DNA of 64,000 nucleotides, taken from a virus. The stretch is from IMG/VR virus record IMGVR_UViG_3300021963_009201, positions 126,034-190,033 of that record; one strand, given 5' to 3'. Shown piece by piece: positions 35,848 through 36,962 of this stretch. The notes under the pieces were generated by a model, which saw only the letters and a program-made list of their open reading frames with translations, was not told the origin of the DNA and made no database searches. The translations under genes were made by a program, and so were the position numbers. Positions within the stretch are counted from its first letter, which is position 1. The number at the start of each line of letters is the position of its first letter.

Positions 35848-36126
35848 TCACCTCCCTTCGTTGTCTCGAAGCCACTGCTGGACCTGAGCTGGATTGTCTT
35901 GCATGTACTTCAGCATCTTGGCATCGCGCGCATTGGTCCAATCAATGTAGACCAACACGAGGGTGACAAGGGTTACCACAAGGAGTGCAATACCAAACAT
36001 TCCAAATGGCGTCAATTGCTTGTTTTCTTGATACACAGTATCCTCCCAGATAACTGTTTCTTGTGCCTCAAAATCTACTGCGTCCATCATTGCATCCAAC
36101 AATGGGTCTGATTCATAAACTTCCAT
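35848..36126 (-). CDS. small membrane protein (start reassigned to MEVYES)
   Basis: UAGGGAG RBS; single TM segment. Confidence 0.7.
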   Translation of the reverse strand: MEVYESDPLLDAMMDAVDFEAQETVIWEDTVYQENKQLTPFGMFGIALLVVTLVTLVLVYIDWTNARDAKMLKYMQDNPAQVQQWLRDNEGR

Positions 36127-36140
36127 TGTATATCTCCCTA

Positions 36141-36196
36141 GCTGTTTCTTGTGCCCCACAATAGGACACTCATCAGGGCGTTAATTCGCCGACAGC
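36141..36196 (-). ncRNA. type III hammerhead ribozyme HH-1 (predicted cleavage after C36191)
   Basis: GCUGU-C-GGCG(AAUUAA)CGCC-CUGAUGA-GUGUCC(UAUUGUG)GGGCAC-AA-GAA-ACAGC. Confidence 0.85.
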
Positions 36197-36224
36197 CCAG
36201 GTTTAGCCCTTACCCTGGATGGGC
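36197..36224 (-). ncRNA. 28-nt H-type pseudoknot motif D, copy 1
   Basis: GCCC-AU-CCAGG-GUAA-GGGC-UAAA-CCUGG; abuts HH-1. Confidence 0.6.
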
Positions 36225-36231
36225 GTAGAGA

Positions 36232-36492
36232 TCAGTATTCCTTGACCTCAATTACCGACATGGCCGTAACTCTAATCTTAGAGTTGGGATCCTGCCGGTC
36301 TTTCTTCGTTTCAGCCAGATACTCATCGCGAGCCTGGCAATCATCGAAGATCCAGCCTGAAGTAGGAACCTTGCAAAAGTTCCCGAATTCGTCCAGGCCA
36401 TGAAGAAAGTGGGTTTCTTCGTCCCACACTTCCCACTTCACTCCATGGTGGGATTCCATGCAGTTAAAGCAGAAGGATTCTTCATTTTCCAT
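36232..36492 (-). CDS. small Cys-containing hypothetical protein
   Basis: CFNC; GGGGGUG RBS before ATG at 36492. Confidence 0.65.
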   Translation of the reverse strand: MENEESFCFNCMESHHGVKWEVWDEETHFLHGLDEFGNFCKVPTSGWIFDDCQARDEYLAETKKDRQDPNSKIRVTAMSVIEVKEY

Positions 36493-36525
36493 ATTCACCC
36501 CCTTTCAGTGTTGGTAGTTGGTGAA

Positions 36526-36572
36526 TGGAGTTCCCCGCAGAGGAATCGAACCTCTGTGCAACCATTCGGGGA
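36526..36572 (-). ncRNA. tRNA-like mini element B, copy 2
   Basis: UCCCCG-AAUGGUUGCA-CAGAGG-UUCGAUU-CCUCUG-CGGGGA-ACUCCA. Confidence 0.7.
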
Positions 36573-36619
36573 GGTAGACATACGTTGATGGGGGTATGTC
36601 AGCCCCAGGTATTACTTGT

Positions 36620-36862
36620 TCAGGCAGACTGAGTCGCGGGATCATACTCGACCCATTGCTCAATCCGGCGTCCATCCCTTGTAGTGCAGGTAAACATGAT
36701 ATTACCTGGTAAATCAATACAGATGGTCACATCGGTATACATTGGTTTGTCACCTTCCTTATAGTTAAGATACACTGAGTACTGTTGCGGATACACTTGA
36801 GTAGACTCAAACTTAACCTCGTTGCCACGAAGGGTGTTGATGGTTCCATTGATGTATGACAT
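36620..36862 (-). CDS. hypothetical protein
   Basis: UAGGGAG RBS directly after HH-2. Confidence 0.7.
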   Translation of the reverse strand: MSYINGTINTLRGNEVKFESTQVYPQQYSVYLNYKEGDKPMYTDVTICIDLPGNIMFTCTTRDGRRIEQWVEYDPATQSA

Positions 36863-36876
36863 TGTATTTCTCCCTA

Positions 36877-36931
36877 GTGTTTCTTGTGCCCCGTTGTTAG
36901 GACACTCATCGGCCTGTTAATTCAGGGACAC
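36877..36931 (-). ncRNA. type III hammerhead ribozyme HH-2 (predicted cleavage after C36927)
   Basis: GUGU-C-CCUG(AAUUAA)CAGG-CCGAUGA-GUGUCC(UAACAACG)GGGCAC-AA-GAA-ACAC. Confidence 0.8.
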
Positions 36932-36962
36932 CCAGGGAAGGGTGTATTGGAGGCAACAATGA

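Follow-up and report, generated by a model that had tools for sequence, protein, structure and literature searches.

Predicted ribozymes and ribosome-binding sites in a viral intergenic locus

Can a natural ribozyme hide the Shine-Dalgarno sequence (SD) of the gene that follows it, in such a way that self-cleavage would expose it? This question is raised by two predicted hammerhead-like RNAs, HH-1 and HH-2, located in the last 64 kb of the 190-kb record of an uncultured virus. We refer to this 64-kb stretch, which is the whole of the DNA that was analyzed, as the window. Both RNAs are encoded on the minus strand in gaps between genes of a co-directional row, where they lie 33 and 38 nt past the upstream stop codons, and they are the sole copies in the 190-kb genome. 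An earlier sequence-only reading proposed that in both copies stem III extends over the downstream SD and forms a cleavage-gated translation switch.

HH-1 and HH-2 resemble type III hammerheads with an open stem III and a 4-bp stem I closed by an AAUUAA loop. The layout common to both consists of the cleavage triplet GUC, stem I, the core strand, a 6-bp stem II, two extra adenines, GAAA and a 5-bp stem III, with AGGGAG following one base after stem III and the ATG 7 nt further on. HH-1 occupies positions 36141..36196 of the minus strand and is predicted to be cleaved after C36191, i.e. between 36191 and 36190. Its parts, all on the minus strand, are the 5′ strand of stem III (GCUGU, 36196-36192), the GUC ending at 36191, stem I (36190-36187 with 36180-36177, the AAUUAA loop between them), the core CUGAUGA (36176-36170), stem II (36169-36164 with 36156-36151), the AA insert (36150-36149), GAAA (36148-36145) and the 3′ strand of stem III (ACAGC, 36145-36141). 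The SD of HH-1, UAGGGAG, lies at 36134..36140 on the same strand (AGGGAG at 36139-36134), 7 nt before the ATG at 36126. HH-2 spans 36876..36932 of the minus strand, with predicted cleavage after C17, which is C36927. Here the stem III strands are GGUGU (36932-36928) and ACACU (36880-36876), the core reads CCGAUGA (36912-36906), the AA insert is found at 36885-36884 and the SD UAGGGAG at 36870..36876 (AGGGAG at 36875-36870), 7 nt before the ATG at 36862, again all on the minus strand. The positions and the strand thus agree with those of the sequence-only reading, and the coordinates likewise bear out its statement that stem III ends one base before AGGGAG in both copies. Stem II is identical in HH-1 and HH-2, and stems I and III differ by compensatory changes.

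Every core base and the GUC are present in HH-1, and in HH-2 a C replaces U4 (U4C, position 36911); both copies carry the two extra A residues before G12. Position 4 of the hammerhead core is conserved, and canonical cores have no AA between stem II and G12. No published description of such an insert was found in the literature searched. The U4C change is strain-specific, as a U stands at this position (CUGAUGA) in contigs of three other studies and in every relative that was retrieved. Since a 2025 estuary sample contains the same C, the variant persists in the population. With the Rfam model RF00008, for which the threshold is 48.5 bits, HH-1 scored 24.8 bits and HH-2 was not reported; a model of the family described below (R1) gave 79.5 bits for HH-1 and 71.1 bits for HH-2.

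The gene 3′ of HH-1 (35848..36126, minus strand) encodes a protein of 92 aa with one hydrophobic helix and the gene 3′ of HH-2 (36620..36862, minus strand) one of 80 aa. Neither protein has a Pfam or PHROG match, and no relative of either was found in viral contigs. The start of the first gene at ATG 36126 is backed by the relative L069:277, in which the start position is identical. A search of phage records for resemblance to the hammerhead region returned none, an exact scan of viral contigs with the stem II of the window copies gave zero matches, and no promoter-like site was found on the minus strand in their 5′ flanks. Among RNA sequencing runs, none was found to contain the stretch. The stretch from the ribosome-binding site (RBS) to the ATG is near-identical between HH-1 and HH-2 and moves with HH-2-type modules in relatives. 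In a related phage contig (run X10), position 36128 is joined directly to 36865 with 736 bases skipped, and the start of the HH-1 gene meets the HH-2 region. Because the RBS-to-ATG stretches are near-identical, this joint fits recombination between the ribozyme copies.

Other structured RNAs are present on the minus strand of the window. Two tRNA-like elements at 35540-35595 and 36527-36576, on which ARAGORN makes no call, consist of an acceptor stem and a T arm (GGUUCGAUUCC), and each is followed by ACUCC and then by a structured leader ahead of the SD of the next gene. Depth spikes at 36527-36572 in other metagenomes suggest a repeated module. A pistol ribozyme at 25963-26039, in the same orientation as the genes, scores 59.7 bits and is above the Rfam threshold. 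A tmRNA is located at 3763-4155 and nine tRNA genes are distributed from 4225 to 25776.

A hammerhead family with an AA insert

Viral contigs were scanned with a pattern made up of the GUC, the first core strand and, between them, stem I with its loop, which resulted in 63 related viral loci. All of them also contain parts that the pattern did not specify, namely a stem II that covaries, the AA insert and GAAAC and, downstream of these, an SD of the GGAG type with a start codon. As 63 of 63 matches carry motif parts from outside the pattern, a chance origin of the family was rejected. Sequences from these loci and the two window copies were combined in an alignment of 48 sequences, in which pairing extends to 94.5% of cells overall and to 100% in stems I and II, and 8 of 15 pairs show changes in both partners. 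The covariation score, to which the three stems contribute, was reached by none of 500 shuffles, and slid-register controls collapsed. Apart from the U4C of HH-2, the core, the GUC and the AA insert are invariant across the alignment. Pairing and covariation together support the hammerhead secondary structure well, and the AA insert is a constant element of this family.

The Rfam threshold was reached by no family member in the 15 loci scanned. With the covariance model R1, built from the 48-sequence alignment, additional variants and hammerheads of other types were detected in these contigs, all of them before an SD and a start codon. The family element usually occurs as a single copy in phages of 40-60 kb. 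The downstream genes are small and unrelated, forming 29 clusters among 49 proteins, which indicates that the module is generic and not bound to one gene.

Several loci show additional arrangements. Within 1.5 kb, L051:4028-5518 contains four Rfam-grade type II hammerheads and one AA-insert type III member. The variants L036:13279-13349, L042:2359-2430 and L028:3638-3706 have an altered 5′ core strand (UAUGAAGA or UGUGAAGA) and a single A before GAAAC; judged by their sequences, it looks as if one inserted base had shifted between the core strands. A second type III family (L023:7807-7884, L008:8557-8634, L007:1682-1751 and 2191-2263) combines the AAUUAA loop with a canonical core and a 2-nt AU bulge in stem II, and the 5′ strand of its stem III is drawn from the U-tract of an intrinsic-terminator-like hairpin. 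A conserved AT-rich motif, AGATATATAACTTTTGGGACTG, lies approximately 15-40 nt upstream of the GUC ahead of unrelated genes in L012, L013, L015, L017, L026, L043, L050, L056 and L063. This motif is a possible phage promoter; if it is one, cleavage would take off only a very short leader.

The SD of HH-2 is predicted to pair with the 5′ flank of the ribozyme

The flank UUCCCU(G)GGUGU of HH-2 pairs with ACACUAGGGAG. In this arrangement, the anti-SD UUCCCU (36934..36939, minus strand) extends the 5′ strand of stem III past a bulged G36933 and faces AGGGAG, giving 11 pairs for the anti-SD/SD helix and stem III together. The SD is thereby located within a ribozyme helix, opposite the strand that the predicted cleavage removes. 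The duplex between the 30-nt flank and the SD has a predicted energy of -9.4 kcal/mol compared with a mean of -4.2 kcal/mol for 400 random 30-mers drawn from this DNA (p = 0.017). If HH-2 is constrained to the hammerhead fold, the SD extension forms almost always. Predicted SD accessibility amounts to 0.005-0.26 for the precursor and to 0.06-0.07 under this constraint, compared with 0.74-0.76 for the 3′ product, and in a 45-nt upstream context, removal of the 5′ fragment raises it from 0.005 to 0.74. When all 69 SD-bearing ORFs of the window were ranked, the SD of the HH-2 gene was the 8th least accessible.

Metagenome relatives retain the whole HH-2 module, from AUACACCC as far as the ATG and with the SD included, before two different genes. 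Owing to a difference in one flank base, the masking helix is two pairs shorter in these relatives. The pairing UUCCCU(G)G/UAGGGAG that the sequence-only reading had drawn for HH-2 is thus both significant and retained. The alternative partner that it had named is present as well: ACACCC (36940..36945, minus strand) is the 5′ arm of a hairpin with GGGUGU (36933-36928), which is kept in four relatives (L070-L073), excludes stem III and holds the anti-SD in its loop. A second possible anti-SD upstream of HH-2, CCUCCAA (36947..36953, minus strand), is used in the predicted inactive fold. As it is found in L072 and absent from L071 and L073, it lies outside the conserved module. The observation that the SD is masked is confirmed for HH-2, and in the folding models the masking holds.

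HH-1 does not share this arrangement

For HH-1, a pairing of CCU(G)G with UAGG had been suggested. It can be drawn, but the flank-SD duplex test placed it at background level (p = 0.34). The SD accessibility of the HH-1 gene is 0.40 and thus near the median of 0.28 over the 69 SD-bearing ORFs of the window, a median which also shows that predicted pairing of an SD is common anyway. The relatives retain the 5′ flank of HH-1 and differ in their SD regions, and therefore the pairing is not maintained. The flank forms a 5′ hairpin adjoining stem III (36197..36218, minus strand; CCAGG at 36218-36214 with CCUGG at 36201-36197), which competes with the suggested pairing. This hairpin, also foreseen as an alternative partner, is conserved in L069, L072 and L073, where both arms are kept despite different loops and SD regions. 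With hairpin and ribozyme both formed, the SD is predicted to be open (0.84). The relative L069:277 is predicted to mask its own SD with an upstream CCUCC across a junction. The SD of HH-1 is not convincingly part of a ribozyme helix; its masking is doubtful and probably does not apply to this copy in the window.

Anti-SD sequences abut stem III in most of the family

To call an anti-SD significant, the 30-nt 5′ flank was compared with the background of the same locus (p < 0.05). By this measure, a significant anti-SD abuts the 5′ side of stem III in 35 of 52 distinct sequences and in 16 of 24 lineage representatives, and about one third of the family lineages do not have one. On the 3′ side, the SD is either contiguous with stem III or set off by a bulge of 2-11 nt. 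The two partners match in a lineage-specific manner, with the pairs UUGGAG/CUCCAA, ACGGAG/CUCCGU, GAGGAGG/CCUCCUC and AGGGAG/UUCCCU. Comparison of cognate with non-cognate SD/anti-SD pairs resulted in a p-value of 0.047, which is marginal because the SDs all have a common core.

We considered whether an upstream hairpin could account for the anti-SD as a side effect. This was rejected, since the 5′ arm of the hairpin varies or is absent within lineages and the anti-SD stays. Mean SD accessibility was 0.30 with the observed flanks and 0.44 with shuffled flanks, a weak separation, and for this reason the duplex test was preferred. When folding was left unconstrained, the accessibility of the SD did not differ between precursor and product for roughly half of the members. 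Many family members contain a small hairpin with the SD in its loop; HH-1 and HH-2 do not.

Cleavage may release the SD

We estimated the net binding between the two cleavage products from nearest-neighbour energies. It is predicted to be -8.5 kcal/mol for HH-2 and -9.5 kcal/mol for HH-1, with a family median of -5.2 kcal/mol. Only 3 of 52 members have a product duplex below -12 kcal/mol; these lie at -16 to -18 kcal/mol and would be too stable for unaided separation. Such weak binding indicates that the helix should hold before cutting and separate afterwards.

The proposed mechanism is as follows. The helix that closes the ribozyme and the helix that masks the SD would be one structure in HH-2 and in some two thirds of the family. 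Self-cleavage after the GUC would leave the strands of this intramolecular helix on two separate pieces, bound to each other with modest stability, and a competing hairpin in the 5′ product (ACACCC/GGGUGU in HH-2) would aid the departure of the fragment. The SD would then open and the downstream gene would be translated following processing. Unmasking of this kind would be constitutive and one-way. We regard one-way unmasking of the SD coupled to processing as the best fit, with a probability of roughly 45%; cleavage, release of the fragment and an effect on translation are the steps that we infer. The proposal that cleavage exposes the SD of both genes is in line with the predictions for HH-2 and for much of the wider family, but not for HH-1. 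With this comparative support at the level of the family, the unmasking interpretation is plausible on the predicted structures. The term “switch” is not justified, because the natural layout contains no sensor: stems I and II are short hairpins without an extra conserved domain, and no riboswitch family matched the hammerhead region. The AA insert and the U4C of HH-2, as sequence features, count against the best explanation, and cleavage, if it is fast and co-transcriptional, may leave the masking little effect on output.

The same elements could also be active processing sites in which the SD is simply a G-rich strand that stabilizes a longer stem III in a compact, often AT-rich gap. Cleavage would then be fast and translation not meaningfully gated, and the benefit would come from a defined 5′-OH end, separation of the cistrons and differing stabilities of the fragments. 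Such a role agrees with the placement of the elements 33-38 nt past stop codons within a row of co-directional genes, on a strand that shows no promoter-like site, and with the tRNA-like elements in nearby intergenic gaps and the pistol ribozyme farther along the same strand. In addition, canonical type III hammerheads in the same contigs precede genes too, in their case with no anti-SD, and processing of polycistronic RNA has been proposed as a role of bacterial hammerheads (PMC6765202). Against this explanation, the SD is targeted exactly in many members despite a bulge of 2-11 nt in the 3′ strand, which looks like selection for pairing with the SD and not for mere lengthening of the stem. 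We consider structural economy less probable than the unmasking interpretation, though it is a serious competitor.

Two further explanations are improbable. Pairing with the SD could serve as a toehold by which the 3′ strand displaces the 5′ hairpin and completes stem III, and a ribosome on the SD would then block folding of the ribozyme, such that only untranslated RNA is cut. The conserved hairpin ACACCC/GGGUGU of HH-2-type modules, which excludes stem III and displays the anti-SD in its loop, would suit this order of events, and the inactive fold is favoured over the active one by a predicted 2 kcal/mol or so. These are nearest-neighbour predictions, however, and across the wider family the anti-SD is conserved and the 5′ hairpin is not. 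Equally hard to sustain is a family of non-cleaving RNAs, in which the AA insert, together with U4C in HH-2, would disable catalysis and reduce the conserved three-way junction to the role of a structured leader governing translation or stability: the insert is non-canonical, all scanned members stay below the Rfam threshold and U4C persists in the window and the 2025 estuary sample, but all other core nucleotides and the GUC are invariant in dozens of diverged sequences, which would hardly be expected of RNAs that lack catalysis, members are found beside Rfam-grade type II hammerheads, and HH-2 relatives have the canonical U4.

Comparison with known hammerheads and engineered devices

Insulators of the RiboJ type are engineered combinations of a hammerhead and a hairpin placed before an RBS, in which the upstream leader is cut off and the 5′ end is fixed. 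They are not known to have been designed for masking of the SD before cleavage. Many family members resemble them in having a small hairpin that presents the SD, which the window copies do not have. A likeness also exists to the hammerhead aptazymes of Ogawa and Maeda and of the Hartig group and to the twister constructs, engineered devices in which the SD is paired to an anti-SD in a ribozyme helix. Those devices are synthetic, contain a ligand-sensing aptamer and rely on cleavage to relieve the masking, whereas the phage elements have no aptamer and no evident input and would provide at most a constitutive one-way release. In engineered hammerhead and twister constructs with a masked SD, an active ribozyme resulted in 5- to 100-fold higher expression (PMC5052635).

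Intergenic hammerheads of phages and prophages have been known since Perreault et al. 2011 (PMC3088659), where some were found just a few bases ahead of a start codon, such as HHphage, located 13 nt upstream of a helicase gene (PMC3088659); Shine-Dalgarno sequences and ribosome binding are not mentioned in that work (PMC3088659). The family described here shares with those hammerheads the catalytic core, the three-stem fold and the position between genes of phage polycistronic units. It differs from them in the AA insert, the 4-bp stem I with AAUUAA, the anti-SD that continues stem III and the sub-threshold Rfam score. In the literature covered by our search, which lay outside most subscription journals, we found no report of a natural ribozyme that masks an SD.

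Our results define a sizeable family of AA-insert hammerheads that current Rfam thresholds miss. If its members are active, the hammerhead core tolerates an insertion adjoining G12. Thousands of bacterial and phage hammerheads are known and, according to a 2019 review, their purpose is still undefined (PMC6765202). A conserved anti-SD on the fragment that would be cleaved off provides a concrete hypothesis for the phage hammerheads, namely that processing licenses translation. More tentatively, such elements may be widespread natural phage cassettes in which self-cleavage of the hammerhead is needed to uncover the RBS of the next gene, a claim we would put at well below even odds. If this is true, it would be the first defined job of phage hammerheads, and with these cassettes engineered ribozyme switches would have a counterpart in nature.
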